Assembly: GCA_046756385.1 (NCBI GenBank)
Contig: JBHHWG010000003.1
Location: forward strand, 6,298 to 70,297
DNA: 64,000 nt
Direction: 5' to 3'
Origin: Sphingomonadales bacterium
GTDB lineage: Bacteria > Pseudomonadota > Alphaproteobacteria > CAZZKF01
Shown here: positions 12,792 through 33,724 of the stretch, piece after piece
How the letters are laid out: each line of letters starts with the position of its first letter
Position numbering within the stretch: position 1 is the first letter of the stretch
Notes under the pieces: model-generated
Databases searched by the model: none
What the model was told of the DNA's origin: nothing
What the model saw: the letters and a program-made list of their open reading frames with translations, nothing else
Translations under genes and position numbers: made by a program

Positions 12792-12799
12792 GGCTGGCT

Positions 12800-15610: not shown

Positions 15611-15659
15611 CACGACCAACTCCTGTTTTCGCTGTGCTTGAGCCCACGCCCGGACCGTG

Positions 15660-17015: not shown

Positions 17016-19105
17016 CCGACCTCCCAGCTTTGGCACGCCATGCCATCCGACGGCAAACGCCGTGACACGGGGAGACGGACGTGCATGACCGTTCCGTGAT
17101 CGGGCCTGCTGTCGACCACAAGCTGACCGCCAAGATCCGTTATGACTTGCCGGCTCTCGAAGGCGCCAATGCCATAGCCAGTGTTCTTTGTGCTGTGAAA
17201 AGGACTGAACAGTTTGGTCCGGATGAACTCGGCATCCATGCCCGGTCCGTCATCCTCAATCTCGATAACCGCGTTGTCTCGTTCCCGGCTTAAACGAACC
17301 TCCACGGTCCCGGCCCTGTCCGCGGCATCAACAGCGTTTTGAATGAGATTCCCCAAAGCTCTGGACACCTGGTCCCCGTCGCCGTTAACCAGCAGCCGGT
17401 CCACCGCGCAGTTAAACCGCATGGTCAGTTCCGGCCGGTCCTTGCCGTCCATGGCTTCGCGCAACAGCGACACCAATTCGACTTCTTTCTCCGCCTGCCC
17501 AGGCTCGCGCGCCCGATGCAGCCGGTTCAGCAACCGGTTCATTTTGCCGATCGATTCCCGGACCGTGGCGATCATGTCGGCCTGGAACTCGGGATTGTCG
17601 CCATGGCGGTCGGCGTTCTTGGCAAGCAGCGACAACTGACTGACAAGGTTCTTGATGTCATGAAGAACGAAGGCGAACCTGCGACTGAAGTCCTCGAACC
17701 GCCGCGCCTCCATGAGCGCTTTTTGGGCCGCCTGCTCCGCCAGATAGCTGGCTACTTGCCGCCCCACCGTCTTGAGCAGGTCCAGATCCTCCCAATTCAG
17801 ATCCCTGGACGCCCGAGGCTCGCCCAACAACACAAAGCCGATCAATCGGTCATGATGAATAAGCGGCAGCACGAGCCACGCCCGGCGGATGGACCGAAGC
17901 CATCGCGGTTGCACGAAGCCCTCATAGAATTCCGATTTTTCCTTCAATTCCGCCAGGTTCACGACCCATTGCCGCCGCGCCAGGAACTGGGCCAGCGCCC
18001 CGTCAACCGGCTCCGTCTCGGTGACCTGGGAGTGGAAGTTCCATTCGGCGACCAACGCGAAATGATCAGAGCCGCCGTGCAACCACAGCCCACCCCCCGG
18101 ACTATCGGCAATGTCCGCCACCGCCTGTATCGCCCGCTGACGCAAGTCGGGACCGGTCGAAATCGTTGCAATAAAACGCAACCATTCCTCGCGATAATCA
18201 TATTTATAGTCAAAGAGATGCTTGGTCAGAAAGACCCGGATCCAGGTTCGGAATCGTCCCGAAAAGAGAACCACGCCAAGTGACAGCAATGCGCCAAACA
18301 GGAAAGTTACTTGAAATACGGTGCCCCACAGACCGCCAGCCTCCCGGATGTAATAGGCCACCGTGGCCATGATCAACAGGTAGGCGCCGCCCACAACCAT
18401 CGAAGCCGTGTGAAACACCAGGCGTCGCGACACGAAAATATCGAGTGACCATTTCTGGTTCCGGGCCGCCGCAACAGCAACCAGCGGCACGATCAGGGTA
18501 AAGGCCAAACCCCGTGCCTCAAACAGCCGCAAGTCGAGCGCTTGCAAAAGCAACGCCTGGGCGTACATGTAGAAATTGAAACCGAACAAAGCCGCCAACG
18601 CGAAACAAAAGAACCGTATTTTCCAGCGGTCATTATGTTCCGTGTTGCGAAACAGATTTTCGATCAACACGATTCCGCCGACGCTCAAGGTCAGACGTCC
18701 CACCAGGCCCCACAAATAAAGCTGCCGTTGGACAGAGGCATCAGCCGCGAACGCGGCCGCGAAGTCGACGGCAATCAACAGCGCAACAGCCAGCACAGTC
18801 ACCGCCGGCGCGATAATGCGAATTCGGGAGCGCTTGGCCTGTCGCCAGTGCAACGACAAAAGACTGAGAAGAAAAGCCAGCCATCCACCAAGGTGGATAA
18901 TCTCCAGCGGGCCGCCGGTCACCGCGTATCCGACGCCGAAACGTAAATTCGCCGCCACCGTAAGCGCCCAGACCGTGGTTAGGGCGCAAGCGGCGACCAG
19001 CCAGCTACCCGGTCCACGTTGTTTCCAGCCGATAGCCAACAGGCAGGTTAAAAGCAGGAACGCAGCTCCCGCGACCGAATAGCTTATGACGCCAATGTCA
19101 CTCAC
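17012..19105 (-). CDS. prsK: PEP-CTERM system histidine kinase PrsK-like (polytopic membrane N-terminus, GAF-like region, HisKA/HATPase)
   Basis: The hydrophobic N-terminal half is about 300 aa. An H-box (FVLHDIKNLVSQL), an N-box (GNLIQNAVDA) and a G-box (DDGPGMD...GYGIGAFE) are present. It is coupled to prsR. Confidence 0.87.
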   Translation of the reverse strand: MSDIGVISYSVAGAAFLLLTCLLAIGWKQRGPGSWLVAACALTTVWALTVAANLRFGVGYAVTGGPLEIIHLGGWLAFLLSLLSLHWRQAKRSRIRIIAPAVTVLAVALLIAVDFAAAFAADASVQRQLYLWGLVGRLTLSVGGIVLIENLFRNTEHNDRWKIRFFCFALAALFGFNFYMYAQALLLQALDLRLFEARGLAFTLIVPLVAVAAARNQKWSLDIFVSRRLVFHTASMVVGGAYLLIMATVAYYIREAGGLWGTVFQVTFLFGALLSLGVVLFSGRFRTWIRVFLTKHLFDYKYDYREEWLRFIATISTGPDLRQRAIQAVADIADSPGGGLWLHGGSDHFALVAEWNFHSQVTETEPVDGALAQFLARRQWVVNLAELKEKSEFYEGFVQPRWLRSIRRAWLVLPLIHHDRLIGFVLLGEPRASRDLNWEDLDLLKTVGRQVASYLAEQAAQKALMEARRFEDFSRRFAFVLHDIKNLVSQLSLLAKNADRHGDNPEFQADMIATVRESIGKMNRLLNRLHRAREPGQAEKEVELVSLLREAMDGKDRPELTMRFNCAVDRLLVNGDGDQVSRALGNLIQNAVDAADRAGTVEVRLSRERDNAVIEIEDDGPGMDAEFIRTKLFSPFHSTKNTGYGIGAFESRQVITDLGGQLVVDSRPDHGTVMHVRLPVSRRLPSDGMACQSWEVG

Positions 19106-19164: not shown

Positions 19165-20559
19165 TTACCGTGCTCCTTCAGGCAATAAAATCACTCTCGC
19201 GGTTTGGATCAGGATCAGGAAATCCATGAAAATGCCGCAATTTTTGATGTAGTAGAGATCGAACTGGAGTTTCTGTTTGGCATCCTCGACCGAGGCGCCA
19301 TAAGGATAATTGAGTTGGGCCCAACCCGTAATGCCTGGCTTTACCTGATGCCGCTCTGAGTAATAAGGCACTTCGCGGGTCAAGGATTCGACGAAATATG
19401 GCCGCTCCGGCCGGGGCCCCACCAAACTCATATCTCCTTTAAGGACGTTGAAAATCTGTGGCAGTTCGTCAATGCGGGTCAAACGCAGAACAGTCCCGAC
19501 CCGGGTTGCCCGCGGATCGTTCTCCTGGGCCCATTGCGGTGCGCATTTGGGTTCGGCGCCAACTTTCATGCTCCGGAATTTCAGCAGAGTGAATTCCCGA
19601 CCGTACTGCCCCACCCGCTTTTGCTGATAAAAAATCGGCCCCCGTGATGAAAGCGCAATCGCCAAAGCGGCCACCAAAAAGATCGGAAGCGTAAAAAAAA
19701 GGGAACCCAAACTGACTGTCAGGTCGAATAGCCGTTTCACGGCGCGGTCAAAACGTCCGGCGGCAAACCCGTCCGAATAGATCAGCCAGCTCGGGTCGAG
19801 GGATTCCAGATCAACCAGCCCGGTTTCCCGTTCCACAAAAGTTGAATAATCCGTGATTCCGATGCCGCTGAGTTTGCACGCCAGCAGATCACGGACCGGC
19901 AACGCGCCCCGTCGCTCCTCCGGCGCTGTAATGATTTCATCAATGTGGTTCTGTTTGGCGAAATCGACGAGCGAGACAACGGCTGAAAATTCGTGTGCGT
20001 TTGTGATGGTCATTTCCCGCGGATTCATGCGAAGGAAGCCGACGACCGCAAAACCATGGGTCAGGCCATCCGTCTCAAGGCCTTGCACCCGAAGCGCCCG
20101 TTCACCCGCGCCAAGCACCAGAAGACGATGCTTGAGGGCATTCAGATCAACCAGCCGCGCAAACAGGATTCTGTTTATCAGCAACCCGGCGAACGACGTC
20201 CCATATGAGATAATGAAAATGCTGCGCCATTCCGAGATATCCGGAATCAAATAGAACACCATCGCGAACCACAGAAAGCTCAACCCGAACACGACCATCA
20301 GGCGGCTGACGGATACCCTGAGATCGCGACAAGCGTCGCGCTGATATAGTCCCAGGGCAACCATCGCGATGGTCAGCACAGTCACAAAGTGAGCGGCTTC
20401 GCCAAGTCTTTCGTCGAACGCCGCCGGTACATTTTTCAGCTCCAGCAAGCGAATGTAGTAACCCGCATAATAGGCGGCGAACAATACAGCGATATCCAAC
20501 ACGCCAAGGGCCAGAACCGACTTTGGGACATACTGCTTGAAGATACGGATCATGCCCAA
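19165..20559 (-). CDS. Polyprenyl-phosphate sugar phosphotransferase (bacterial sugar transferase; PEP-CTERM-associated EpsB-type priming enzyme)
   Basis: Four to five N-terminal TM segments precede a C-terminal WbaP/EpsB-type domain (KRLFDL...GPIFYQQKRVGQYGREFTLLKFRSM...DELPQIFNVLKGDMSLVGPRPERP). Confidence 0.88.
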   Translation of the reverse strand: MGMIRIFKQYVPKSVLALGVLDIAVLFAAYYAGYYIRLLELKNVPAAFDERLGEAAHFVTVLTIAMVALGLYQRDACRDLRVSVSRLMVVFGLSFLWFAMVFYLIPDISEWRSIFIISYGTSFAGLLINRILFARLVDLNALKHRLLVLGAGERALRVQGLETDGLTHGFAVVGFLRMNPREMTITNAHEFSAVVSLVDFAKQNHIDEIITAPEERRGALPVRDLLACKLSGIGITDYSTFVERETGLVDLESLDPSWLIYSDGFAAGRFDRAVKRLFDLTVSLGSLFFTLPIFLVAALAIALSSRGPIFYQQKRVGQYGREFTLLKFRSMKVGAEPKCAPQWAQENDPRATRVGTVLRLTRIDELPQIFNVLKGDMSLVGPRPERPYFVESLTREVPYYSERHQVKPGITGWAQLNYPYGASVEDAKQKLQFDLYYIKNCGIFMDFLILIQTARVILLPEGAR

Positions 20560-20801: not shown

Positions 20802-23216
20802 TTATAATGAGCGGCCCGGCCGATCGAGCTTCAGCAGCAAGGCAGGCAGCAGCATAAAGTCCGCCGGCAAGGCAATGGCAATTGTCACGGAGGCCAGAAC
20901 CCCCATCCCCCAGGTCGGTTGAAATCCGGACATCGTAAGCGTCAGGAAACCGGCGACCAGAACGAGCGTGGTGATCAGCAGCGCTTTTCCGACATTCAGG
21001 AAGGCATACCGAATTGACGCCTCCGGCCCGAGACCAAGGCTCCGGCGCGCGCGAAGATATTTGCTGAGCAGATGAATTGTATCATCGACGACGATACCAA
21101 AAGTCACCGCGGCGACGATCGATATCGCCACGCCAACCTCGCCCACAAGAAAGCCCCACAGGCCGAACGCGGTTACCGCCGGAACAAGGTTGGGCACCAG
21201 GCTGATCAGGCCCACTTTGACGCTGCGCAGGGCGATGATAAGGATGGCGGATACCAGACATAGCGCCAGCATCGTCCCCCATAACATGCTGCGAATATTC
21301 CGGTCCGACAAATGCGCGAACATGATCGGCACCCCGGTCCCCTTCAGCGGTTCGTGAAGGCCGTGGCCGGTCCCGGCGCTGTGTTTGTCGTTATCGGCTG
21401 CAAACCAGGCCGCCGCGCGTTTATCAAACGTCCTTAGCTGCCGCGAAGACAGCCCCCGGGTGGCCACGCTCACCCTGGTTCCCAATTTGGCGACGTCAAT
21501 CCGATCATTGAGATCCAGGCCGAACGGCAAGGACATCTCGTAAACGAGCAGATACTGCGCGGCGAGCGCCGCGGTTTCCGGAAGCCTGAAATGGCCCGGT
21601 TCATCGCCGTTGAAATTCTTGTTAAGCCGCTTGAGTATCTGCGTGATCGCCCGAACGTTCACGACTTCGGGCTGACGCTCAGCCCATGCCACGAACCGGT
21701 CGACCCGCTCCAGATAAGCCGGTTCGTATATGCCGCTGTCTTGTCCCGACTCGATGACATATTCGACAACATTGACCCCGGTCAGACGTTCGCGCACGAA
21801 ATCCGTATCCCGCCTCAGGGAAAAGCTGTGGTCGAAATACTCGACCCAGCTATCGTTGAGCTCAATTCTCGAAAGCCCTGTCATAAGGCCGATGACGACC
21901 GCCAAACACCCCCAGAACAGAACACGATGGCGCCGCGCCACGGCCCCGTGCCACCGCGACAAAACATGATGAAAGCGCACCGGGCGGCCCTTTCCCGCCG
22001 TCGCCGAAAACATCGACATCAGCGCCGGCAGAAAGACCACCGCGCAAAAAAAGCCGGCGCCGACACCGACCGCGACCAGATTGCCCAGATCGCGAAACGG
22101 TTTCGAATCGCTGGCGTTTAAACTGAGAAAACCAATCGTTGTGGTGGCGCTGGTCAGGAACACGGGCCACAGATTGGTCTCCAACGCCTCAATGACCGCC
22201 CGATACCGCGAGCCGCCATGGGCCTGCCGCTCAAAAAAAGACGTTAAAATGTGGACGCTGTTGGCGACCGCCAGCGTCAGCACGATTGTCGGCGCCGCCG
22301 CTGAGCCAGGATTCAGGACCAATCCCGACCAGCCCGCGAGGCCCAAAGCCGTCGACGCCGCGACAATGGCCACCGACAACACCGCCGCCATCCCCGCCCA
22401 GGACCGCAATAAGAGAGCCATCATGACCGCAATGACCAACAGCATGACCGGAAACAAAGTCGTGAGTTCGCGCCTCGTCGCCTCGGCAAAAGCGTCGGAC
22501 ATCATCACCGACCCGGTGAGGTAAAATCTGATTTCCGGGAAACGCTTCATAAGGCGCGACGTCAACAAGCGCACATGAGCGGCGGCCTGCTCGGCGGCTT
22601 GCCGCTGGCCCTCGCGATAGATCAAATTCACCACCACGCCGGTGACGTCGCCGCCCGGTGAAACGATCAGGCCGTTGAGCATCGGCTCGGACAGCGCGGC
22701 TTCCCGGACCGCCCGCAGTTCATCATCGCCAAGACCGGCCGCGCCGACAACCAGGTCACGGATGATCAGATCGTCCTCGAAGGCCCGCGAATATTGGAAA
22801 TTCGTAAGCGAGTCGACACGGGCGGCGAACGGAATCCGCCACGCCTGTTCCGTCAACATCTCGACAGCCGACAGGACTTCCCGGGTAAAAACGTCACCAT
22901 CGCGCGGCGCCAGCACAATGAGCAGATCATTGGATTCGGAAAAACGCCCCTCAAGCGCCTCGAACGCCAGCCGAAATGGGTTGTGTTTACCGAAAAAAAC
23001 GCGACTGTCAGTGGTGTGTTCGACCCGCGTGATGCCCGCGCCGACAGCCCCAACCATAAGAATGGTCACCAGGATTACCGCCCAACGCCACCGTATGGCG
23101 GCCAAGCCCAGGCGGCGCGGCAAGGCGCGTGACGGCTTCACACTTCCCGTGTTTGTTTTTTCAGTGACACCGGGCATTTGCATCAACCAGACGCTGGTCC
23201 GGTCTCCACACTGCAT
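20802..23216 (-). CDS. RND-superfamily exporter, MMPL/HpnN-like (HAE3-type) with two 6-TM bundles
   Basis: The roughly 800-aa protein has duplicated TM clusters separated by large soluble loops, the typical MMPL/SSD architecture. The start is ambiguous (Met1, Met12 or Met14). Confidence 0.82.
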   Translation of the reverse strand: MQCGDRTSVWLMQMPGVTEKTNTGSVKPSRALPRRLGLAAIRWRWAVILVTILMVGAVGAGITRVEHTTDSRVFFGKHNPFRLAFEALEGRFSESNDLLIVLAPRDGDVFTREVLSAVEMLTEQAWRIPFAARVDSLTNFQYSRAFEDDLIIRDLVVGAAGLGDDELRAVREAALSEPMLNGLIVSPGGDVTGVVVNLIYREGQRQAAEQAAAHVRLLTSRLMKRFPEIRFYLTGSVMMSDAFAEATRRELTTLFPVMLLVIAVMMALLLRSWAGMAAVLSVAIVAASTALGLAGWSGLVLNPGSAAAPTIVLTLAVANSVHILTSFFERQAHGGSRYRAVIEALETNLWPVFLTSATTTIGFLSLNASDSKPFRDLGNLVAVGVGAGFFCAVVFLPALMSMFSATAGKGRPVRFHHVLSRWHGAVARRHRVLFWGCLAVVIGLMTGLSRIELNDSWVEYFDHSFSLRRDTDFVRERLTGVNVVEYVIESGQDSGIYEPAYLERVDRFVAWAERQPEVVNVRAITQILKRLNKNFNGDEPGHFRLPETAALAAQYLLVYEMSLPFGLDLNDRIDVAKLGTRVSVATRGLSSRQLRTFDKRAAAWFAADNDKHSAGTGHGLHEPLKGTGVPIMFAHLSDRNIRSMLWGTMLALCLVSAILIIALRSVKVGLISLVPNLVPAVTAFGLWGFLVGEVGVAISIVAAVTFGIVVDDTIHLLSKYLRARRSLGLGPEASIRYAFLNVGKALLITTLVLVAGFLTLTMSGFQPTWGMGVLASVTIAIALPADFMLLPALLLKLDRPGRSL

Positions 23217-23261: not shown

Positions 23262-23289
23262 TTGAAAAAATACAAATCATTGCGATAAT
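23262..23289 (+). promoter_or_regulatory. Candidate sigma-70-type promoter for the second TPR gene
   Basis: TTGAAA (23262-23267), a 16-nt spacer, then GATAAT (23284-23289), in the divergent intergenic region. Confidence 0.35.
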
Positions 23290-23394
23290 GTATTACTTCT
23301 CTTTCCGTAGCTCATGATGGCCAGAACCTATCGCTCCACGAACTCGATTGTGCGCCCAGCGCACCCGACGCATTCAATTCGAGGGTCCGGTTCC

Positions 23395-26226
23395 ATGTTC
23401 ACGAAAATACCCAAGCCAGAAGTTCGGAATTTTGGGATTCAACGCTCTAAATTCCGGCGCGGCCTGGCCCTGGTCGCATTTATCGTGGTGGCCCTGAGCG
23501 CATGCGACAACGCGGCAAACTTGACGGCCGAGGAGTATCTTCTAAGAGCCCGCGAATTTCAGGTCGCCGGAGATTTGCGCTCCAGCATTATCGAACTGAA
23601 AAATGCGCTGCAGAAAAACCCTGACAGCTCGGCCGCGCGCTTTCTTCTGGGTGGCATTTATTTGGAAATCGGCGAAGCGGAGGCCGCCGAAAAGGAGTTG
23701 CTGCGGGCGATCAGTCTCGGGATGGGCCGGACGTCGGTGGCCCTGTCGCTCGGCCGGGCGTGGCTGATGCAGGGGAAATTCCAGAATGTGCTGGAGGAGA
23801 TTTCCTTCGAATCCGGCGATTCAAACAGCTACAAGGCCTCGGTTCTCGCCTTGCTTGGCGACGCCTATCGCGGTCTGCGAATGCCGGGCGAGGCCGAAAA
23901 GTCGTTTCGCGCCGCGCTTGAAGTCGACGCAAATTCTCATGTGGCCCGGGTCGGCCTGGCCCGAGCCTACAAGGACCTCGGTGATTTGATCCAGGCAGAG
24001 GCGTATTTGCGCCAGGCTCTGGAGATTGCCCCTCAGGATTTCCACGTCAGGTCCTTACAAGGCGATCTCGCATTTGCCCGTGGCGACCATGAAGATTCGG
24101 AGCGGATCTACGCCGCGCTGCTGGCGGAAAATCCGAATTACCATGTCGCTCGAATGGGCCTGGCGCTGGCTCAAATCGGCGCACAAAAATACGACAACGC
24201 CAAAAACAACCTGGCGGCTCTGTTAAAAGTCTCCCCCAACCACGCCTATACCAATTTTCTGCGGGCTCTGGCCGCCTACCTGGATGGTGAATATGAGGAC
24301 GCGAAGACCTTCGGGGACAAGGTTTTCCGTCAGGAAAGCGCTCACCTGCCCACGCTTCTGGTGGCCGGAGCAGCAAGTTTCGCACTCGAACAGTTCGAGC
24401 AGGCGGCGAACTACCTGCTGCAATTTGTCGATCAGGTTCCCGACCATATGACAGCCCGAAAATTATTGGGTGGCACGCTGTTGCGGCTTGGTCAGTCGCG
24501 GCAGGCTTTCACCATCCTCGAACCACTTGCGGATAAAGACACCGGCGACGCCGAGCTGCTGACCATGGTTGGCGCCGCCGCCGTCCGGAGCGGCGACATC
24601 GCCAATGCCGGCCGATATCTCAGAAGCGCGGTTGCGCTTCGCCCACACGACGCCGCGCCATTGCTGCAGCTTGGCACTATCAGAATGGCGCTCGGGGAGA
24701 CGGAGGAGGGCTTAACCGACATCGAACGCGCGATCACGCTGGAACCCGGAAAGGAAGCCAACGAAATCGCCTATATCGGCATCCTGCTGCGGGCAAAGGA
24801 GTTCGAGCGGGCCCTGACGGCGGCGCGGCAGCTGGAGGCTCGACAGCCAGCAAGCCCCATTGGCGCGACCCTGGCTGGCCAGGCCCTGACTGGACTAAAG
24901 GATTTCGCCGGCGCCGAGGCCGCCTTCAGGAAGGCACTGACAATTGACCCCGGATTTTTCGAGGCCACCCACTATCTGGCGGTGATGGCATTGGGCCACG
25001 GTCAGCCCGACAGGGCGCGCTCCCTTTATCACGGCCTTTTGAAACACAAACCGAAACATCTGAACGCCTTGCTCAGCCTGGCCCAGCTTGAAACGATTGA
25101 AAAAAACCACGCGGAAGCCGGCCGCCTGCTCGAGATCGTGGTCCAGGACAATCCCGACAATGCAACGCTGCGAATATTGGTTGCTCAGGCCCATCTCAGG
25201 ACCGGCGCGCCCCTGAAGGCGCTTTCGGCGACCAACCAGATCCTGGAGAAATTTCCGCGAAATCCGTCGTTGCTGGAGGTCACCGGGAAGGCGCAACTGG
25301 CCGCCGGCCAGGTCGACGCGGCACTGGCAACCTTCGAATCCCTCATCAGATTGCAGTCTCAATCGGCCGCCGCCCGACACATGAAGGCAACCGCGCTTGA
25401 AGCCAGGGGTGATTGGAACGGGGTCGAACAGGCGATCCAGGAAGCCCTGGCCCGGGCCCCCGATTATCTACCAGCGAGGATCCTGGAAACCCGCGCACTC
25501 GGTCGAAAGCAAGACACTGACGCCGCCAGGAAACTGATCGCGGACCTGGCGGTCGAGCACCCCGACCATCCGGAGGTGATCGAACTGCAAGGCAATCTGG
25601 CGCTCCAGCAAGGCAAGTTCGATGTTGCAATCGAACATTTCAAACGGGCTCAACAGGCGGACGCCACCAGCGGGGCAGCGGTAAAGCTGTCATTGAGTCA
25701 GTGGCGGTCCGGAGATCGGCAGGCGGCGTGGGCAACGTTGGAGCAGTGGTTGACAGACTTCCCCAGCGACGTGGCCGTTCGCCTCCAACTGGCCAGCACA
25801 TACGAAGAGACCGGGCGTTTTGAGGATGCGCGGCAACATTATGAAACCGTCATCCGGCAAATGCCGGGGCACTGGATAGCAAGAAACGATCTCGCCTGGA
25901 CGCTCATGAAAATGAAAAAGCTGGACGAGGCGCTTGATCACGCGGAGTTGGCGCATACCGCCAGTTCCTCCGATCCGGCCGTTGCGGACACACTGGGCCT
26001 GATCTTGTTGCGACTCGGTGAAAATTCGCGCGCCGAACGTCTGTTGCGAGAGGCGGCCGATGGCATGCCGGAGGATCAGAACGTTCGCTATCACCTCGCT
26101 CTGGCGTTGTCCCGGGCGGGGAAACAGGAAGAATCCCAGGACCTTCTGAAAAAGATCCTGGCATCCGACCAACCCTTCCCGGAACGCGCCGCCGCACAAG
26201 CGTTGCTGGAGGGTGCCGGCCGTTAA
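23395..26226 (+). CDS. Second PrsT-like TPR-repeat protein, predicted lipoprotein
   Basis: TPR repeats run throughout, and its size and repeat organisation match the prsT product. The signal peptide has a lipobox (LVAFIVVALSAC). GAGGG precedes ATG 23395. The tracked ORF opens at 23314. Confidence 0.8.
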   Translation: MFTKIPKPEVRNFGIQRSKFRRGLALVAFIVVALSACDNAANLTAEEYLLRAREFQVAGDLRSSIIELKNALQKNPDSSAARFLLGGIYLEIGEAEAAEKELLRAISLGMGRTSVALSLGRAWLMQGKFQNVLEEISFESGDSNSYKASVLALLGDAYRGLRMPGEAEKSFRAALEVDANSHVARVGLARAYKDLGDLIQAEAYLRQALEIAPQDFHVRSLQGDLAFARGDHEDSERIYAALLAENPNYHVARMGLALAQIGAQKYDNAKNNLAALLKVSPNHAYTNFLRALAAYLDGEYEDAKTFGDKVFRQESAHLPTLLVAGAASFALEQFEQAANYLLQFVDQVPDHMTARKLLGGTLLRLGQSRQAFTILEPLADKDTGDAELLTMVGAAAVRSGDIANAGRYLRSAVALRPHDAAPLLQLGTIRMALGETEEGLTDIERAITLEPGKEANEIAYIGILLRAKEFERALTAARQLEARQPASPIGATLAGQALTGLKDFAGAEAAFRKALTIDPGFFEATHYLAVMALGHGQPDRARSLYHGLLKHKPKHLNALLSLAQLETIEKNHAEAGRLLEIVVQDNPDNATLRILVAQAHLRTGAPLKALSATNQILEKFPRNPSLLEVTGKAQLAAGQVDAALATFESLIRLQSQSAAARHMKATALEARGDWNGVEQAIQEALARAPDYLPARILETRALGRKQDTDAARKLIADLAVEHPDHPEVIELQGNLALQQGKFDVAIEHFKRAQQADATSGAAVKLSLSQWRSGDRQAAWATLEQWLTDFPSDVAVRLQLASTYEETGRFEDARQHYETVIRQMPGHWIARNDLAWTLMKMKKLDEALDHAELAHTASSSDPAVADTLGLILLRLGENSRAERLLREAADGMPEDQNVRYHLALALSRAGKQEESQDLLKKILASDQPFPERAAAQALLEGAGR

Positions 26227-26231
26227 ATTGA

Positions 26232-28250
26232 TTGGCAAAGTACGCCCGGCTCGGGAAACGGAGTGTTTTGGCTGTGTCCGATCAGTTCGATTACGCCGGG
26301 GCGTTTGATAGAAATATCGGATGGATCACCGAGTTCGAACAGCAAGTCCTTAAAGGCAAAAAGATTGCCATAGCGGGCCTTGGGGGCGTCGGCGGCATCC
26401 ATTTGCTCTCGCTCACCCGACTCGGCATTGGTTCATTTCACATTTCCGATCTCGACAGGTTCGACCTCGCCAACTTCAATCGCCAGATCGGGGCCCATCT
26501 CGGCTCGCTCGGAAAACCGAAGACCGAGGTGCTGGAGGCCATGGCACGGGACATCAACCCGGAAATATCACTCTCCACATTTCCAGACGGGGTTCACGAT
26601 CAGAATCTCGACGCCTTTTTGAACGGCGCCGACCTGTTTGTGGACGGCCTGGATTTCTTTGAGCTCGGAATTCGGTCGAAAATCTTCGCTCGCTGCAGCG
26701 CGCTGGCTATTCCCGCGATCACCGCCGCGCCCATCGGCATGGGGGTGAGCTATCTCATATTCATGCCCGGTCACATGACGTTCGAGCAATATTTTCGCCT
26801 TGCCGGCCTGGCGGCGGACCGGCAGTACGTCAATTTCGCGTTGGGCCTGACGCCAAGGGCGTTTCATCGATCCTATCTACTCGATCCCACCCGCCTCGAT
26901 CTGGCGGGCCACCGCGGCCCCTCCAGCATCGCCGCGTGCAATCTGTGCGCCGGCGTGGTTGCGGCCGAGGCGGTGAAAATTCTCTTGCGCCGGGGGCTGG
27001 TGCGTGCCGCGCCCTGGTGTCACCAGTTCGACCCCTATCAGGACAAAGCCCATTCGACTTATCTGTGGTCAGGCAATCGCAACCCGCTTCAGACCGTCAA
27101 GCGGCATATCGGGTACCGGCTCTTCGCCCGCCTGTCCCGCATTGCCCGCCCCTCCTTGGAGAAGGAGGGAACGACCGAAATCGGGAAGATTCTCAGTTTC
27201 GCCAAGTGGGCTCCCAGCGGGGACAACGCGCAGCCCTGGCGATTTGCCATTCGCGATACGGACAAGGTGGATATTTTTCTCGGTGGCCGCGAGCACCACA
27301 ATATTTATGAATATCGCGACGGTGAGCCGACCCTGATGTCGGGGGGCTTTCTCCTCGAAGGGATTCGGATCGCAGCCCGTCGGTTCGGCCGCTCCTGCGA
27401 ATGGCGCCATACCGGCACCGGCCACGATGGCGCCCATGAAATTTCGGTCTGGCTGCCCAAGGACAGGCCGGTCGACCCTGACCCCTTGTTCCCATATCTG
27501 ATGCTTCGTTCGGTGGATCGCAGGCGCTACCGGATGATGCGCCTCACGGACGAACAAAAGCAGGAACTGGAAGCCGCCCTGGGCGCCGGTCTTTCGGTGT
27601 CGTGGTTCGAAACGCCAGGCCAAAAATGGCGCATGGCCCGGATCAATGCCGCCGCCACCGACATCAGACTGCGCCTGGCCGCCGCCCACGAGGTCCATCG
27701 CAAGATTCTGGACTGGAACCACGCCTTCAGCGCGACCGGCGTCCCGGTGGCCAGTCTTGGCCTGGACAGGATGACCGTGCGGCTGATGGCCTGGTTCATG
27801 ACCAATTGGGCGCGCCTCGATTTCGCCAACCGCTTTTTGAATGCGACCGTCATTCCCCGAGTCGAGATGGACTTGCTGCCGGGACTTTATTGCGCCGCCC
27901 ATTTCCTTATCACCTGCAATACCGCCACTGAGAGCGGCAATCGGGAGACCGTGCTGCTGCGCCGGGGTCAGGCCTTGCACCGCTTTTGGCTCACGGCGAC
28001 GCGACTTGGCCTGGTCGCGCAACCCTCATTGGCCCCCCTGTGCTTCGCGAGCCACGCCCGCGAGGGCCAGCGCTTTTCGGATCGGGTTCGGCTGACGCGA
28101 GCCGCCGACCGGCTGGCGGCGCGACTTGATACCGTCAGTGGCGGTCGCGAAATCTGTTTTCTCGGGCGCGTTGGATGGCCCCGGCAGCCTGGCGGGACCT
28201 CACGATCATGGCGCAAGCCGCTGACCGAGCTATTGCAGGGAACCTCCTGA
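26232..28250 (+). CDS. Two-domain fusion: N-terminal ThiF/MoeB/HesA E1-like adenylyltransferase and C-terminal nitroreductase-fold (Acg/SagB-like) domain
   Basis: E1 Rossmann and ATP-binding motifs are present (IAIAGLGGVGG...SDLDRFDLANFNRQ). Nitroreductase signature is WAPSGDNAQPWRF. The start is TTG 26232 (or GTG 26274), 5 nt after the TPR gene stop. Confidence 0.85.
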   Translation: MAKYARLGKRSVLAVSDQFDYAGAFDRNIGWITEFEQQVLKGKKIAIAGLGGVGGIHLLSLTRLGIGSFHISDLDRFDLANFNRQIGAHLGSLGKPKTEVLEAMARDINPEISLSTFPDGVHDQNLDAFLNGADLFVDGLDFFELGIRSKIFARCSALAIPAITAAPIGMGVSYLIFMPGHMTFEQYFRLAGLAADRQYVNFALGLTPRAFHRSYLLDPTRLDLAGHRGPSSIAACNLCAGVVAAEAVKILLRRGLVRAAPWCHQFDPYQDKAHSTYLWSGNRNPLQTVKRHIGYRLFARLSRIARPSLEKEGTTEIGKILSFAKWAPSGDNAQPWRFAIRDTDKVDIFLGGREHHNIYEYRDGEPTLMSGGFLLEGIRIAARRFGRSCEWRHTGTGHDGAHEISVWLPKDRPVDPDPLFPYLMLRSVDRRRYRMMRLTDEQKQELEAALGAGLSVSWFETPGQKWRMARINAAATDIRLRLAAAHEVHRKILDWNHAFSATGVPVASLGLDRMTVRLMAWFMTNWARLDFANRFLNATVIPRVEMDLLPGLYCAAHFLITCNTATESGNRETVLLRRGQALHRFWLTATRLGLVAQPSLAPLCFASHAREGQRFSDRVRLTRAADRLAARLDTVSGGREICFLGRVGWPRQPGGTSRSWRKPLTELLQGTS

Positions 28251-28273: not shown

Positions 28274-28304
28274 AAAAAACCCCCGAGGATTGCCCTCGGG
28301 GGTT
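28274..28304 (-). terminator. Rho-independent terminator of the PEP-CTERM gene (also a hairpin for the convergent plus-strand gene)
   Basis: A 9-bp GC-rich stem (CCCCCGAGG / CCTCGGGGG) closes a 5-nt loop. On the minus strand it is followed by a U6 run (A6 at 28274-28279 on the plus strand). Confidence 0.8.
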
Positions 28305-28324: not shown

Positions 28325-29200
28325 TCAGGACCGGCGACGTCGACGATGCGCGAGCATCCCCAGGCCGATCAGACCAAATCCGAACAGCGCCATTGCAGTC
28401 GGCTCTGGAATTGCGGCGCCTCGCAGGTCAACCGACCCACCCAGCGGGAAATTCGAGACCGGGATCGTGGCGAAGGACGACCCAAGCAGGAAGTCCTGGC
28501 CGCTTGGCTGACCATTGGTATCGAAATTGGTGTTAGCGACGCCCGGGCCAAAAATATCGACATCAAAGAAGCCAGACCCCGTGCCGCTGCTGACAGTGCT
28601 CAGATCGCCCGCCACGGCCAGGAAGATAGTGGAGACCAGCGTGATTGCCGGGCCGGCGCCTGAGAAGCAGGTCGCATCGCAGACCGTACCCGTGCCTGCT
28701 CCCAGGAGATTGACAAACGGCGTGCCATTCGTGGCCGAAGCAATATCACCAGGAATACCGCCACCTGACGCGCCGCCGGAGAAATCCTGGAGCGGGTCGG
28801 AAAACAGGTCCGCGAAGCCGCCACTGAACTCGACAACGGCAACCGTTCCAGCCAATGTTATCCTTTCAACAAGGAACCCCCCGAATTCAAATGTCAGTTC
28901 GCGGCCGTTATCTCCGTTTTGCCAAAATATGACAGCCCCCGAACCATCCTTGACGGCGTCCACTATGCCGACGCCAAACAAGATGTCTCCGGGCAAGACC
29001 ACGATGTTTTCCCAAATTGTTCCGATCTCAAGAATCGAGCCCGGGGAGAACTCGATACCGGCCTTTTTCACGGCTTCCGCTGGTCCCGAGACGGAAATCA
29101 GCGCGGCGCAAAACAGCGCGCTGATGCCTTTGGCGATCCCAACCGAAACATCTCTTTTGATATGTTTAATGAATCCTACCATCTCGATATCCTTTTTCAT
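28325..29200 (-). CDS. PEP-CTERM sorting-domain protein (secreted Gly/Ser/Thr-rich cargo)
   Basis: The C-terminus IPEPTAMALFGFGLIGLGMLAHRRRRRS is a PEP motif, a TM helix and an Arg cluster. An N-terminal signal peptide ends ...SGPAEA. An alternative start at Met7 (29182) has AAGGAT upstream. Confidence 0.88.
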   Translation of the reverse strand: MKKDIEMVGFIKHIKRDVSVGIAKGISALFCAALISVSGPAEAVKKAGIEFSPGSILEIGTIWENIVVLPGDILFGVGIVDAVKDGSGAVIFWQNGDNGRELTFEFGGFLVERITLAGTVAVVEFSGGFADLFSDPLQDFSGGASGGGIPGDIASATNGTPFVNLLGAGTGTVCDATCFSGAGPAITLVSTIFLAVAGDLSTVSSGTGSGFFDVDIFGPGVANTNFDTNGQPSGQDFLLGSSFATIPVSNFPLGGSVDLRGAAIPEPTAMALFGFGLIGLGMLAHRRRRRS

Positions 29201-29298: not shown

Positions 29299-29314
29299 TG
29301 CAATTAGTGTGCCA
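29299..29314 (-). promoter_or_regulatory. Consensus sigma-54 (-24/-12) promoter of the PEP-CTERM protein gene
   Basis: The minus strand reads TGGCAC-ACTAA-TTGCA, an exact match to TGGCAC-N5-TTGCA. It is oriented toward the gene, about 100 nt upstream of ATG 29200. Confidence 0.7.
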
Positions 29315-29544: not shown

Positions 29545-30282
29545 CTATTCGGCAACCGCTTTCCAGATGTCAGGCCGGCGTTTGCGCAGCCCGTCAAAAA
29601 TGTCGAGGAATTTGCCGTAGCACGGTTGTCGGAGGCCGTGATACTCGACCAGCGGACCAAAGGGATGAAGATAAACCCCCATGCGCGCCAAGATCCGCAG
29701 CAGCGTTGGCTCCATGATCGCGCACCAGTGGGTGATGCCATTGGCGCGGCTCATTTCAACAATCGCCCGAAACAGCCCGATGGTGACCTCGGGCGTGGAA
29801 CGCCGGTTGCGCGCCTCAGCCAGACTGCCTCGCCGCGACGGGCGGGAATCGGCATAAAGCGTGTCCGAAAGCCGTCTGCGAAATTCCCTGGACACAGTGA
29901 ATCGTGAAATTTCGGCGGTCGTCGCCGCCGGCAACAACCTCTCCGGCCACGGACTTAGTTGAGGACAGGCGCCGAGAATCGGAAATCGGGGGCCATCGTG
30001 GCCGGACAAGGGCAGGACCAGTCGGACCGTGCCAGCCACATCACCGGTTTCACGATGCAGCAACAGGCAGTGGTCCGAATGAGCATCGAATTCATCTTTC
30101 TCGCGGCGGTTCAGGTTGCTGGCGGGGTCCTCGTACGGGCGTTCGACGCAATAGACCTGATAACGGATTTTGTAGACACGGTCTCGCAGCTCGTCCGTGT
30201 CAGCGTGAACCACTTTGAAATGGTGATTATAGCGTTCGGCAAAAGACTTCTTGCCCCCCTGTATGGACCGCGCCTGATGCAT
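29545..30282 (-). CDS. GNAT-fold N-acyl amino acid synthase-like acyltransferase (PEP-CTERM/exosortase system-associated acyltransferase family)
   Basis: Carries LRDRVYKIRYQVYCVE...HSDHCLLLHRETGDVAGTVRLV...AEISRFTVSREFRRR, the pattern of LuxI/NasY-like Acetyltransf_5 proteins that I recall as TIGR03694. Confidence 0.78.
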   Translation of the reverse strand: MHQARSIQGGKKSFAERYNHHFKVVHADTDELRDRVYKIRYQVYCVERPYEDPASNLNRREKDEFDAHSDHCLLLHRETGDVAGTVRLVLPLSGHDGPRFPILGACPQLSPWPERLLPAATTAEISRFTVSREFRRRLSDTLYADSRPSRRGSLAEARNRRSTPEVTIGLFRAIVEMSRANGITHWCAIMEPTLLRILARMGVYLHPFGPLVEYHGLRQPCYGKFLDIFDGLRKRRPDIWKAVAE

Positions 30283-30608
30283 TTAGCTATCCACCGCACT
30301 TTCTTTTTTTCGGCACTGCGCCTCGCTCGAAAAAGAGGCGCCTGGCCCTCAATCGAACACTCGCATTGGACCAGAAATTCCTTGCACTTTTGTTAATCAA
30401 AAACCCATGAAGCGCCCGTGTCGCCAACACAATTACCGATTGTTTTCAACAGCCTTTCACGACCGATCGAGCCCCGATTACCCAGTGGCACAATTTTTTG
30501 TTATACTAGGGAACATGGACCACGCTTTATCCGTCAGGGCCGGACAAGGCGAGCGACCTGCTCCCAAGTCTGGCATCTTTTGCCCGACCAAGGCGCGCCA
30601 GAAAACAA

Positions 30609-31574
30609 GTGATGCTGGTGAACACGAACATACCGGCGGCCCGAGTCCCTCAACCGGACCGTCAAAAGGGTGTTCCGCGAAATTGGCTCGTGAAATATCT
30701 GGCCGTACTTGCCATCGCATCCCTGGTTTGCGGCCAGCCGACGGCCAATCCCATTTCCAGCCAGCCGGAAACACCGGCAAAGCCGTCGTGGACGACCGCC
30801 GCGGTTCATACAGGCCCCGACATTGGGCATGCCATGTCATCCGGGCCACGAAGTGCCGCCATGTGGCTGGACAGTACAACTCCGGTTAGCCCGGAACTGA
30901 GAGGCTCAACTACTGACGCTCCCCTCGCTCCGGTAGTCAATTTCGGTTTTTCAAATGGCGAGAGTCTGGCAAGCGGGGCCGTGGCGTCCGCCGAAGCGGC
31001 TCGGGAATTGCGGGACTGGTCCAGCAGCTTCAACGCCCCCCGACAAAGCGGCTCGGCGGCGGGTCCGAACGGCAGTGGCTCACGCCGGGTTGGCCGGGTT
31101 GCGCCGAGCCCACCCGGCCAATCCCGCCGCACAGCCGTCCAGGCGATTTTCACCGCGGTTGAGGACCCGTTCCTGCGATCGGCCATCACCAACATGGCCC
31201 GCTTGGCAAGCGACGAAAACGCCCGCGCTGAATTCAGCTTTTTCGGGCTGAAAGGCTTCGATATCTTTGGCCAAACCGCCGAAAACGGGGCGCGGAATCC
31301 CTGCGCCACGTCCTGGCGCGACGATTATCCCCCCCCAAATGACGCCGCCTCAGGTCAATCCGGCACACAGGGAGCCACGAGGGCCAGCACCGACCCGGGT
31401 TCATTGCTCCGCGCGCTGTCGCTATTCGTCGAACTGATTAATTTTTTGACCCATCCATTGGTCCTCACCATCGCGTTTCTGGTCGGCCTATTCGGAATCA
31501 CGCTAAAATTGCTTGGACGAGCCAAACGCGCCAAACAGCGCCGTCGATTCTCGATTTACCGGAGAATGCGCTGA
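30609..31574 (+). CDS. Hypothetical protein: N-terminal signal-like segment, low-complexity Ser/Ala/Pro/Gly body, C-terminal TM helix plus a basic tail
   Basis: The 321-aa ORF has GC-rich third positions. N-terminal segment is WLVKYLAVLAIASLVCG. The C-terminus is LVLTIAFLVGLFGITLKLLGRAKRAKQRRRFSIYRRMR. No family was recognised and the start is uncertain. Confidence 0.5.
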   Translation: MMLVNTNIPAARVPQPDRQKGVPRNWLVKYLAVLAIASLVCGQPTANPISSQPETPAKPSWTTAAVHTGPDIGHAMSSGPRSAAMWLDSTTPVSPELRGSTTDAPLAPVVNFGFSNGESLASGAVASAEAARELRDWSSSFNAPRQSGSAAGPNGSGSRRVGRVAPSPPGQSRRTAVQAIFTAVEDPFLRSAITNMARLASDENARAEFSFFGLKGFDIFGQTAENGARNPCATSWRDDYPPPNDAASGQSGTQGATRASTDPGSLLRALSLFVELINFLTHPLVLTIAFLVGLFGITLKLLGRAKRAKQRRRFSIYRRMR

Positions 31575-31587
31575 CTCCACATCTGTT

Positions 31588-32604
31588 TTATCGGTCACCG
31601 CCGATCCATTCCAGGATATCCCGCCACACCACCTCCGCTTGCAGATCGCGCAGCAACATGTGATAGCCGTTTTCATAGATGATTGTCCGTGACGCGCCAT
31701 TCAGTCTTTCGGCCACTTTATGAATAGGTTCAGCCGGTATGATTTCATCGTGCCGCCCGTAGAGAAGCAGAATCGGGACATTGAGTTTGGAGGCATTGCG
31801 ATAAGCCCGTTCCATCAATCCCGTCAAACCATACACCGCGTCGATCCTGGTTTTCTTTATAACCAAAGGGTCACGGCCGAGGGCCCGCAGCATTTCAATA
31901 TTGTCGGACGGCGTGATTTCGAGGCTGCCGCCGGTCACCCTCTTCCAGGGGATGGTGTGCGCGGACAGCCACAGCGCGACCCGATAAAGCGGATTCATCG
32001 AGCTCCATCCCCACACTGCCGGGGCGGCGAGGATGACCCCGTCGACCGGAAGGCGCCCTCCCTCCCCATCACAAAGCGCGGCCATGGCGACGGCGCCGCC
32101 CATGCTCTCCCCCAGGACAAGGACCCGGGCATCGGGGTGTTGGCGTCGAACCGACGATACCATCAGTCTCAGGTCCGACTTCAGGGCCTCGGTCCCGGCC
32201 CAGATTCCGCGCCCGGCAGTGTCACCGAAACCGCGCTGATCGTAAGCATAGGTTGTGATGCCGTGACGCGCCCACCAGGTGGCCGGCGCATCAAACGCCA
32301 TGCGGTAGTCGTTAAAGCCATGGAGCGCGATAATTACCGCCGTGACGGGCCCATCGCCATTCCATTTTTTCACCGGCAGCCGTTGACCGTCCGTGGCCAC
32401 CAACCCGGCAGCGGTGAGGCCCGGCGCCGCGGCCGGATTCGGCTCGACCGCCCCAAATTTCTGCACTTTCGGCGCGCAAACGGCCAGGGACAGCGACATT
32501 CCAATCATGGCGGCGGCTCTCCCCATTGCGCGCCATCCGATCCTGGGCAACACACTCATTGCCGGATTAAGCCTCTTTCCCATGTTTTTCTCCGCTCTGT
32601 CCAC
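31588..32604 (-). CDS. Alpha/beta hydrolase (lysophospholipase / monoacylglycerol lipase-like), probable lipoprotein
   Basis: Has HGFNDY, the nucleophile elbow GESMGG, and a signal with a lipobox-like LSLAVCAP. Confidence 0.85.
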   Translation of the reverse strand: MDRAEKNMGKRLNPAMSVLPRIGWRAMGRAAAMIGMSLSLAVCAPKVQKFGAVEPNPAAAPGLTAAGLVATDGQRLPVKKWNGDGPVTAVIIALHGFNDYRMAFDAPATWWARHGITTYAYDQRGFGDTAGRGIWAGTEALKSDLRLMVSSVRRQHPDARVLVLGESMGGAVAMAALCDGEGGRLPVDGVILAAPAVWGWSSMNPLYRVALWLSAHTIPWKRVTGGSLEITPSDNIEMLRALGRDPLVIKKTRIDAVYGLTGLMERAYRNASKLNVPILLLYGRHDEIIPAEPIHKVAERLNGASRTIIYENGYHMLLRDLQAEVVWRDILEWIGGDR

Positions 32605-32728
32605 CCCCAGAACCTGGTAATCTCGGCGCCGGGCGCCAATACGGCTTGCTTGCCGCGCCTGCTATCGTATAGTTGCAGCCTCTCGCGGAAACGGGGCCGA
32701 TATTGGTATCAGGCCGAGGAAAGGACAC

Positions 32729-33724
32729 ATGAACGATTTACCGGCCACAGTGCGATTCTACGACTTTAGACCGACCGCGCAATCGTTTGGTGATGCAGTC
32801 GCCGAGGGCTTGCGCAAGGACCAGAAATCCATCCCGTCCCGGTTCTTTTACGATGATCGCGGGTCCGAACTGTTCGAGCGCATTTGCGAGCTTGATGAAT
32901 ATTACGTGACCCGCACCGAGCTGTCGCTGCTGCGGGAAACCAGCGCCAAAATCACCCGGCATATGGGCCGGAATCGTGACGTCGTCGAGTTCGGATGCGG
33001 CTCAAGCGCCAAGGTGAGGGCCGTGCTCGATGCGGCCGACCAGCCGTCGTCCTACTGCGCGATCGACATATCCAAAAGTGCCCTTCTAACCCTCGCCCGG
33101 GAACTGGCCGACGCCTATCGCGCCCTCGAAATCATCGCCGTTTGCGCGGACTACACGGCTCAGCTTTCCTTGCCGGGCACGAACGGCGGCAGCCTTAAAT
33201 CGAGCGAGGGCCAGGCCAAAGTCGGTTTCTTTCCGGGCTCCACGATCGGCAACTTCACACACAAGGACGCCGAACAGTTCCTCCAAACCGCCGCCAGCAT
33301 GCTGGGTCCCGGCGGCAGCCTGATTATCGGGGTCGACCTGAAAAAGGACATCCGGACGCTGGAAGCAGCCTATGACGACGCCAAGGGCGTCACCGCGCAG
33401 TTCAACCTCAATCTGCTGGCGCGCATCAACCGGGAGCTTGGAGGCAAAATCGAGCTTTCGTCATTTCGCCACAAAGCATTTTTCGACCCGGTCGAGGGCC
33501 GGGTCGAGATGCATCTGGAAAGTCTGGTCGATCAACACATTGCGCTGGAGGGCATGGAGGTCCGTTTAGCCGCGGGCGAGACCATTCATACCGAGGACTC
33601 CTACAAATACACGATCGACGAGTTCAAGGCGTTGGCGTCAAGATGCGGCTTCGAACCAGTAGCGGCCTGGACCGATGATGATGCCTTGTTCAGCATCCAC
33701 TATCTCACGGTCGCCGCAGGCTAG
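32729..33724 (+). CDS. egtD: EgtD-type SAM-dependent L-histidine N-alpha-methyltransferase
   Basis: Carries FYDDRGSELFERICELDEYYVTRTE...VEFGCGSSAKV...TEDSYKY, typical of the EgtD/DUF2260 family. Confidence 0.82.
   Translation: MNDLPATVRFYDFRPTAQSFGDAVAEGLRKDQKSIPSRFFYDDRGSELFERICELDEYYVTRTELSLLRETSAKITRHMGRNRDVVEFGCGSSAKVRAVLDAADQPSSYCAIDISKSALLTLARELADAYRALEIIAVCADYTAQLSLPGTNGGSLKSSEGQAKVGFFPGSTIGNFTHKDAEQFLQTAASMLGPGGSLIIGVDLKKDIRTLEAAYDDAKGVTAQFNLNLLARINRELGGKIELSSFRHKAFFDPVEGRVEMHLESLVDQHIALEGMEVRLAAGETIHTEDSYKYTIDEFKALASRCGFEPVAAWTDDDALFSIHYLTVAAG

Follow-up and report, generated by a model that had tools for sequence, protein, structure and literature searches.

A fused ThiF–nitroreductase gene in an XrtA/PEP-CTERM locus of a Sphingomonadales bacterium probably encodes an OxzB-type oxazolone synthetase

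What would a protein that joins an E1-like adenylyltransferase to a nitroreductase fold be making, and why should its gene stand among genes for a protein-sorting system of the cell surface? The question is raised by an open reading frame (ORF) at 26232-28250 (+) in a stretch of 64,000 nucleotides from a Sphingomonadales bacterium (assembly GCA_046756385.1, contig JBHHWG010000003.1, positions 6,298 to 70,297), referred to below as the window. As to the first part of the question, we consider it likely, at a probability of about 85%, that the gene encodes an OxzB-type oxazolone synthetase, converting N-acyl amino acids into acyl-oxazolone lipids. The domain architecture, motifs, folds, homology and pairing with an acyltransferase that carry this reading come from the present analysis, and the chemistry comes from the literature; the activity of this particular protein, its amino acid and acyl chain, and a single transcript shared with the upstream prsT gene are what we infer. 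The target is a further member of a known enzyme family, characterised between 2020 and 2025, and not a novel system.

The ThiF–nitroreductase di-domain protein was named OxzB by de Rond, Asay and Moore, who described OxzA as making an N-acyl amino acid and OxzB as turning this product into an acyl-oxazolone, tyrazolone or phenazolone (bioRxiv 10.1101/2020.06.11.147165). Their heterologous expression covered the oxzAB pairs of Pseudoalteromonas rubra, Rheinheimera, Colwellia, Skermanella aerolata and Undibacterium; tyrazolones/phenazolones were the products of the S. aerolata pair in Escherichia coli, and the in vitro reconstitution used OxzAB of P. rubra (bioRxiv 10.1101/2020.06.11.147165). 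In Mycobacterium tuberculosis, TyzACB was characterised earlier by the Eltis laboratory (PMC10404671), followed in 2025 by Rv1355c, now TrzS, an N-acyl-tryptazolone synthase for which FMN, an ATP-dependent cyclisation and then an O2-dependent desaturation were demonstrated (PMC12856293). A preliminary description of the window, made from its letters alone, had likened the target to Rv1355c (MoeY), and the likeness holds in that the domain architecture is the same and the family model is matched, if below its threshold; its remark that the function of Rv1355c is unknown has been overtaken by the work on TrzS.

The gene and its two domains are placed as follows.

26274-28250 (+): predicted oxzB-type oxazolone synthetase gene, 658 aa from GTG 26274 (longest ORF from TTG 26232)
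26307-27047 (+): ThiF-like adenylating/cyclase domain, residues 26-272 of the 672-codon ORF (Pfam PF00899, E 1.6e-34)
27165-28232 (+): Acg-type (flavin-dependent oxidase) nitroreductase-fold domain, residues ~312-667 (PF00881, NF047509)

The 672-codon ORF from TTG is indeed present, and the fusion of an E1-like adenylyltransferase to a nitroreductase fold, first seen by eye, is agreed upon by Pfam, NCBIfam and a structure model. The gene probably starts at GTG 26274, because the database's own prediction for the protein (P0001) has 658 aa and the N-terminus MSDQFDY, because the closest homologue (65% identity, locus L081) opens alike with MSDRYHY, and because a GGAG lies 10 nt 5' of this codon. 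The distance from the prsT stop is thus 47 nt instead of 5 nt, so that the translational coupling of prsT and oxzB proposed initially is left without evidence and is rejected here, whereas an operon fits. No terminator-like site was found between prsT (23314-26226) and oxzB, a sigma-70-like site is present at 23262-23289, and the two genes are probably co-transcribed. An antisense ORF within oxzB, at 27069-28022 (-), was considered and dismissed as a high-GC shadow ORF, all homology support being on the + strand.

Profile searches found both ThiF PF00899 and nitroreductase PF00881, the latter match beginning at residue 316. Of the NCBIfam models, PRK08223, a 296-residue 'hypothetical' ThiF-like equivalog, exceeds its cutoff (390 bits, 266 required), while the Acg family model NF047509 (90.6 bits against 199, over residues 320-667) and the Rv1355c/TrzS family model NF005901 (126.5 bits against 476, well aligned for the C-terminal half only) are matched below cutoff. 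Over its full length the target resembles sequences of the OxzB kind: a ThiF–nitroreductase protein of S. aerolata (P0077) shares 52% identity with it in an alignment covering 97% of the target (687 bits), and identity is 42% to a homologue in Pseudoalteromonas ardens, whose gene overlaps the upstream synthase gene by 4 nt.

Motifs of the ATP and FMN sites are conserved. The motifs GLGGVGG, DLDRFDLANFNRQ and WAPSGDNAQPWRF, on which the preliminary description had relied, are present, and their columns are invariant in an alignment of 25 family sequences, to which the invariance statements that follow also refer. When the target is aligned with E. coli ThiF and MoeB, the ATP-site residues (GxGGxGG, Asp, NxxRQ, Lys and DxxD) are conserved; GxGGxGG, Asp59, Arg70, Lys83 and Asp127 (P0001 numbering), matched to E. 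coli ThiF, are invariant, and so is the Arg of an N-terminal AFxRN motif. Judged from these residues, the ATP site is intact. Asp127 would correspond to the ThiF/MoeB Asp that is equivalent to TrzS D217, a link made through ThiF and not by direct alignment; in TrzS, D217A abolished cyclisation and R540A impaired desaturation (PMC12856293). In the nitroreductase-fold domain the motifs WAPSGDNxQPW and RSVDRR are invariant, and R465 and Q583, which may be the equivalents of TrzS R540 and Q651, are conserved. The N-lobe motif APSxxNxQPW and the C-lobe motif RSxxRR together presumably make up one FMN site, and such a site, split over two lobes, would be expected for a pseudo-dimeric Acg-like monomer. 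The region of the E1 crossover loop (~residues 165-218) is expanded and conserved, and it holds no Cys in the alignment, nor does the family have CxxC zinc motifs; the E1 catalytic Cys that the preliminary description had asked about is, in other words, missing from a region that is itself conserved. A crossover loop without Cys fits a mechanism in which the amide oxygen attacks the acyl-adenylate directly, with no thioester intermediate.

The predicted structure points the same way. An AlphaFold2 model built on the 25-sequence alignment (mean predicted local distance difference test score, pLDDT, 85.8) was compared with the Protein Data Bank (PDB) by Foldseek. For the ThiF-like domain, the best structural match is AclA (9egb), with a template modelling (TM) score of 0.84; ThiF (1zud) is matched at a TM score of 0.78 on the target, and MoeB, MccB and PaaA are matched as well, MccB and PaaA aligning with the Rossmann core only (TM score on the target ~0.55). 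PDB entries 9egb/9egc, released in August 2025, are titled 'AclA from Tenacibaculum discolor in complex with substrate', and AclA may be another small-molecule ThiF-like cyclase. The nitroreductase-fold domain matches the Mycobacterium smegmatis Acg homologue 2ymv at a TM score of 0.74 over 381 columns, which bears out the double-lobed Acg-type fold first suggested from the sequence.

If the target works as its characterised relatives do, the following reaction may be proposed. The acyltransferase encoded at 29545-30282 would attach to an amino acid, in all likelihood aromatic (Tyr, Phe or Trp), a fatty acyl group taken from acyl-CoA or acyl-acyl carrier protein (acyl-ACP). Next, the ThiF-like N-terminal domain would adenylate the carboxylate of the N-acyl amino acid with ATP/Mg2+, and the amide oxygen would attack the acyl-adenylate intramolecularly, closing a 5(4H)-oxazolone ring without involvement of an E1-type cysteine thioester. 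With O2, the C-terminal Acg-type FMN domain would desaturate the C-alpha/C-beta bond to give a yellow 4-arylidene acyl-oxazolone, and this would slowly hydrolyse to an N-acyl-dehydroamino acid. Of the two carboxylates that had been imagined as substrates, the acyl-amino acid agrees with what is characterised for OxzB, and the protein C-terminus has found no support.

The proposed supplier of the substrate is encoded 1.3 kb downstream of oxzB.

29545-30282 (-): predicted oxzA-type N-acyl amino acid synthase gene (PEP-CTERM/exosortase system-associated acyltransferase), scoring 240.7 bits with TIGR03694 (cutoff 112)

Its product also matches the Pfam families Acetyltransf_5, FeeM and Autoind_synth. 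Pairing of this kind is conserved among relatives. We collected 80 genome loci, from alpha-, beta- and gammaproteobacteria, Planctomycetales, Omnitrophota and other groups, and subjected their ORFs to searches and clustering; the 56 loci that extend for 3 kb or more to either side of oxzB are called well flanked. The set of 80 consists of the query's nearest relatives and is phylogenetically non-independent. The most conserved neighbour of the oxzB family is a synthase of N-acyl amino acids, found in 42 of the 56 well-flanked loci and at most 500 nt from oxzB in 35. The partner position is occupied by two unrelated synthase families: 48 loci have a TIGR03694-like gene, and about 10 more have a FeeM-family gene (PF21926, 181 bits) standing directly upstream. 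The upstream ORFs of L034 and L073, two loci with no recognisable synthase, gave no Pfam match, and they may be divergent acyltransferases or unrelated.

Several points weigh against the assignment. The identity of the target to tested homologues is no higher than 42-52%, and P0077 may differ from the S. aerolata sequence that was expressed. The full-length di-domain models PRK14851 and PRK14852 (NCBIfam di-domain/tri-domain models) were matched below cutoff, and the profile libraries searched held no curated OxzB model. The oxzA gene of the window is not directly upstream of oxzB but 1.3 kb off and convergent, with a PEP-CTERM gene between. The producers of stieleriacine, kyonggic acid and thalassotalic acid yield N-acyl-dehydrotyrosines only, with the oxazolone undetected, and the ring-opened form may therefore be the physiological end product.

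The family is large, and its modules are repeatedly shuffled. It comprises 1,782 clusters (90% identity, E ≤ 1e-10) among 8,000 candidates scored, and 553 when the clustering is done at 50% identity (E ≤ 1e-30); most members carry a generic molybdopterin/thiamine adenylyltransferase annotation. One example of shuffling is a ThiF–nitroreductase–TIGR03694 triple fusion (L014:9932-12745, +). Another example is presented by the 989-residue model PRK14852, whose N-terminal part is matched by a FeeM-type synthase (L055) and whose ThiF-like region starts near position 314, which suggests a FeeM–ThiF–nitroreductase fusion. A third example is the separation of the ThiF and nitroreductase halves into adjacent genes in 12 of the 80 loci (L040, L045, L048, L049, L057, L061, L065-L068, L075 and L036, betaproteobacteria; the taxa are Janthinobacterium, Massilia, Zoogloea, Accumulibacter, Ferrovum, Thiobacillaceae and Nitrosomonas), where a ThiF-like protein of ~290 aa, of the PRK08223 type, and a nitroreductase of ~365 aa are encoded by genes that often abut. 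In five further proteins (P0189, P0198, P0217, P0221 and P0234) the ThiF domain is C-terminal or lies behind 230-470 extra residues. Other neighbours are variable. In Candidatus Thiomargarita nelsonii (L004:12080-16018), oxzB is followed by a single nonribosomal peptide synthetase module (condensation–adenylation–thiolation–thioesterase) with no recognisable N-acyl amino acid synthase, and here the N-acyl amino acid may come from a starter condensation domain. A GT1/macrolide-glycosyltransferase-family gene occurs near oxzB in 16 loci (L022:11956-13170 and 15 others) and a hexapeptide-repeat acyltransferase in eight (L025:13529-14281 and seven others), hinting at glycosylated or further acylated lipids derived from oxazolones; glycosyltransferase neighbours are mentioned by de Rond et al. 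too (bioRxiv 10.1101/2020.06.11.147165).

As to why the gene stands where it does, the window holds the regulatory and glycosyltransferase part of an XrtA/PEP-CTERM system, with the following features besides those already given.

7147-10720: GT4 glycosyltransferases
12800-15790 (-): prsT, first copy (NCBIfam, above cutoff, 760 bits)
15660-17036 (-): prsR (NCBIfam, above cutoff)
17012-19105 (-): prsK (NCBIfam, above cutoff)
19165-20559 (-): EpsB_2 glycosyltransferase (TIGR03013, above cutoff)
20802-23216 (-): MMPL/RND transporter (match not above cutoff)
23314-26226 (+): prsT paralogue, encoding an XrtA/PEP-CTERM tetratricopeptide-repeat (TPR) lipoprotein (702 bits with TIGR02917, cutoff 312; lipobox LSAC in …VVALSAC…)
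28278-28304 (-): terminator-like G+C-rich hairpin and T-run between the convergent oxzB and PEP-CTERM genes (12-bp stem, 8 GC pairs; from a consensus scan only)
28325-29200 (-): PEP-CTERM cargo protein gene, convergent with oxzB (PF07589 at residues 262-286; weak floc_PepA match)
29299-29314 (-): predicted sigma-54 -24/-12 promoter element TGGCACACTAATTGCA, ~100 nt upstream of the PEP-CTERM gene

The score and the lipoprotein signal place the gene upstream of oxzB in the PrsT family, as had been suspected of this TPR lipoprotein. The sorting signal that the preliminary description had assigned to a neighbour does exist, although PrsT is without one: it belongs to the convergent gene, whose product ends …IPEPTAMALFGFGLIGLGMLAHRRRRRS, with the pattern IPEP…RRRRRS. 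The element TGGCACACTAATTGCA is the sole zero-mismatch match to TGGCAC-N5-TTGCW in the 64-kb window. Exosortase XrtA was not found among the window ORFs scanned with the profile libraries. The locus thus has two full-length PrsT paralogues (760 and 702 bits), of which the oxzB-linked copy diverges more from the model; a third, partial TPR protein is encoded at 44607-46418 (-).

The placement recurs in relatives. PEP-CTERM ORFs were called by a C-terminal regular expression that found 52 among 5,546 ORFs, and none after shuffling of the tails. A PEP-CTERM cargo ORF (~250-350 aa) lies at most 500 nt from oxzB in 29 of the 80 loci, and a PEP-system marker or PEP-CTERM ORF lies within 10 kb in 44 of the 56 well-flanked ones, so that the connection suspected from the single window, with co-occurrence proposed as its check, proves real at the level of gene neighbourhood. 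L081, the 65%-identical relative, has the order prsT–oxzB followed by a convergent PEP-CTERM gene, as do L043, L024, L027 and L028, and several alphaproteobacterial metagenome-assembled genomes (MAGs), Emcibacter included, share the layout of the window; in Nitrosospira, the order is prsT–FeeM–oxzB. In L081, a SAM-dependent methyltransferase gene (12004-12846, -), not present in the window, stands between oxzB and the PEP-CTERM gene, reminiscent of the methyltransferases of the stieleriacine clusters. Putative sigma-54 elements are found upstream of 12 (strict) to 31 (relaxed) of the 52 PEP-CTERM ORFs, against expectations of ~0.2 and 1, which fits control by PrsR, a sigma-54 activator. We also considered a single 'OxzB-associated PEP-CTERM protein family' and rejected it, as without the sorting signal the cargo proteins split into several BLAST clusters; hhalign comparison of their mature parts did not join these clusters (probabilities ≤58%, over short segments). 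The link of the synthase to PEP-CTERM systems is already published (Craig et al., 2011, as cited in later work) and is expressed in the name of TIGR03694. Our literature search found no paper tying oxazolone synthetases to exosortase/PEP-CTERM, and the OxzB preprint is silent on such a link (bioRxiv 10.1101/2020.06.11.147165). The mildly new point is the tight placement of oxzB inside a PEP-CTERM/exosortase surface-protein locus.

Could the enzyme be something else? A classical ThiF/MoeB/MoeY-type E1, which would adenylate a sulfur carrier of the ubiquitin-like kind and have in the nitroreductase an accessory redox module, would account for the PF00899 match, for the intact look of the ATP site and for the public annotation of homologues as 'molybdopterin/thiamine biosynthesis adenylyltransferase', yet the ThiF, MoeB, MoeZ and UbaA equivalogs all score far below cutoff (TIGR02356, 77 against 275; NF004281, 73 against 266; TIGR02355, 59 against 377). 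The alignment, moreover, lacks both the zinc motif and the crossover-loop Cys, the conserved partner is an acyltransferase, no small ThiS/MoaD-like cluster is seen among the conserved neighbours with ORFs of at least 70 aa, and a small-molecule substrate has been demonstrated for the OxzB/TrzS family. We therefore give a sulfur-carrier function next to no credence and consider the public label misleading for oxzB genes. It also seems very improbable that the protein acts as a cyclodehydratase/dehydrogenase of the kind found with peptides synthesised ribosomally and modified post-translationally (RiPPs), its substrate being a peptide or the C-terminal end of the PEP-CTERM protein encoded alongside. 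The likeness to azoline-forming RiPP enzymes that had been remarked upon is a fair one as chemistry, in that cyclodehydration is followed by FMN-dependent dehydrogenation, and the peptide modifiers MccB and PaaA are structural neighbours, with a PEP-CTERM gene adjacent; but the characterised substrate is a small lipid and not a peptide, the similarity to MccB and PaaA is confined to the Rossmann core, the adjoining PEP-CTERM proteins are not one family, and no YcaO or RiPP recognition element (RRE)/peptide-clamp domain was found among the scanned ORFs. The absence of YcaO, as first noticed, extends to the window ORFs of at least 150 aa (NCBIfam/Pfam) and to the conserved neighbour clusters of the 80 loci, small precursor ORFs not having been searched.

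A different possibility leaves the enzyme as described and concerns its physiological role, which might lie within the PEP-CTERM/exosortase system, the product being a signal to PrsK/PrsR or an azlactone acyl donor that lipidates cargo or exopolysaccharide. We hold this idea as tentative at best. It would make sense of oxzB standing between a prsT paralogue and a sigma-54-preceded PEP-CTERM gene, beside prsK, prsR and epsB_2, of the recurrence of this layout in L081 and several MAGs of alphaproteobacteria, of the counts given above (29 of 80 and 44 of 56), of the published synthase link (Craig et al., 2011, as cited in later work) and of the LuxI-like fold of the synthases (Autoind_synth match). 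Against it, the argument is one of gene co-location among loci that are the query's closest relatives and not independent of one another; OxzAB is also encoded where the neighbourhood has no PEP-CTERM gene, as in Pseudoalteromonas (L072) and Fluoribacter (L034), the adjoining cargo proteins have mature parts with no detectable mutual homology, and added oxazolones gave no phenotype in the hands of de Rond et al. (bioRxiv 10.1101/2020.06.11.147165). The fuller proposal, that the acyltransferase product is not the end point and that the OxzB-made acyl-oxazolone, a reactive azlactone, is integral to the PEP-CTERM system as a diffusible PrsK/PrsR cue or as an activated lipid donor for cargo or exopolysaccharide, appears to us unlikely as matters stand. 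If it were true, oxazolones would gain a biological role and the exosortase system a small-molecule component, and the recurrent embedding of oxzB in PEP-CTERM loci is a testable lead to the role of bacterial oxazolones.

Some further genes of the window may be recorded. Divergent from oxzA, two overlapping ORFs (160 and 321 aa) at 30407-31574 (+) have no Pfam/NCBIfam match, and a sigma-54-like site with two mismatches is found at 30486-30501 (+). An alpha/beta-hydrolase gene at 31588-32604 (-), weakly matching an exosortase-associated hydrolase model, is followed by a gene for an EgtD-type histidine N-alpha-methyltransferase at 32729-33724 (+; 379 bits); the same hydrolase and EgtD-type genes adjoin the cluster in L043. 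The ORF at 31720-32769 (+), overlapping the hydrolase gene, has no family match and may be a shadow ORF. On the other side, beside the PEP-CTERM locus, a 605-aa protein encoded at 10974-12791 (+) resembles ZorA below threshold (87 bits against a cutoff of 250), ZorA being the MotA-like component of the Zorya anti-phage system.

How, then, does the target compare with known systems? The target does not score as a member of the TrzS (NF005901) or Acg (NF047509) families, nor does it have the features of the sulfur-carrier or azoline-RiPP enzymes. TrzS/TrzA of M. tuberculosis and M. smegmatis likewise comprise a fused ThiF-like cyclase and flavin-dependent oxidase, with the acyltransferase TrzA upstream, and TrzS shares the structural neighbours of the target, ThiF (1zfn) and Acg (2ymv) (PMC12856293). 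TrzS differs, however, in belonging to another subfamily, in being actinobacterial and in making tryptophan-derived short-acyl products, and it falls into a network subcluster separate from OxzB and TyzB (PMC12856293). TyzA/TyzB/TyzC of M. tuberculosis (PMC10404671) provide the same three activities, as separate proteins where the window has a fusion, and the TyzB/TyzC split resembles the separate ThiF and nitroreductase genes of the 12 loci mentioned above. In the Acg (Rv2032) family, represented by 2ymv, the nitroreductase fold is double-lobed and monomeric and carries a single FMN site, a fold that the C-terminal domain of the target shares; unlike the target, Acg proteins stand alone, belong to the flavin-dependent oxidase group FDO-B and are not implicated in oxazolone synthesis (PMC10404671). 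With respect to the TIGR03694 synthases (Craig, Cherry and Brady, 2011), the partner encoded in the window is an above-cutoff member situated in an XrtA/PEP-CTERM locus; that work concerns the acyltransferase. The closest agreement is with OxzB of P. rubra (de Rond, Asay and Moore, 2020/2021), which has the same ThiF and nitroreductase order, a like length and an OxzA-type partner and is proteobacterial. The arrangement of the window departs from those systems in that oxzB comes after a prsT paralogue, within the regulatory locus of an XrtA/PEP-CTERM system, and oxzA is convergent rather than directly upstream. As to the protein itself, the target, like OxzB, joins an N-terminal ThiF-like domain to a C-terminal nitroreductase (FDO-A) domain in one polypeptide, and it has an ATP/Mg2+ site that appears intact, an oxzA-type gene nearby and close full-length homology to the S. 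aerolata protein.

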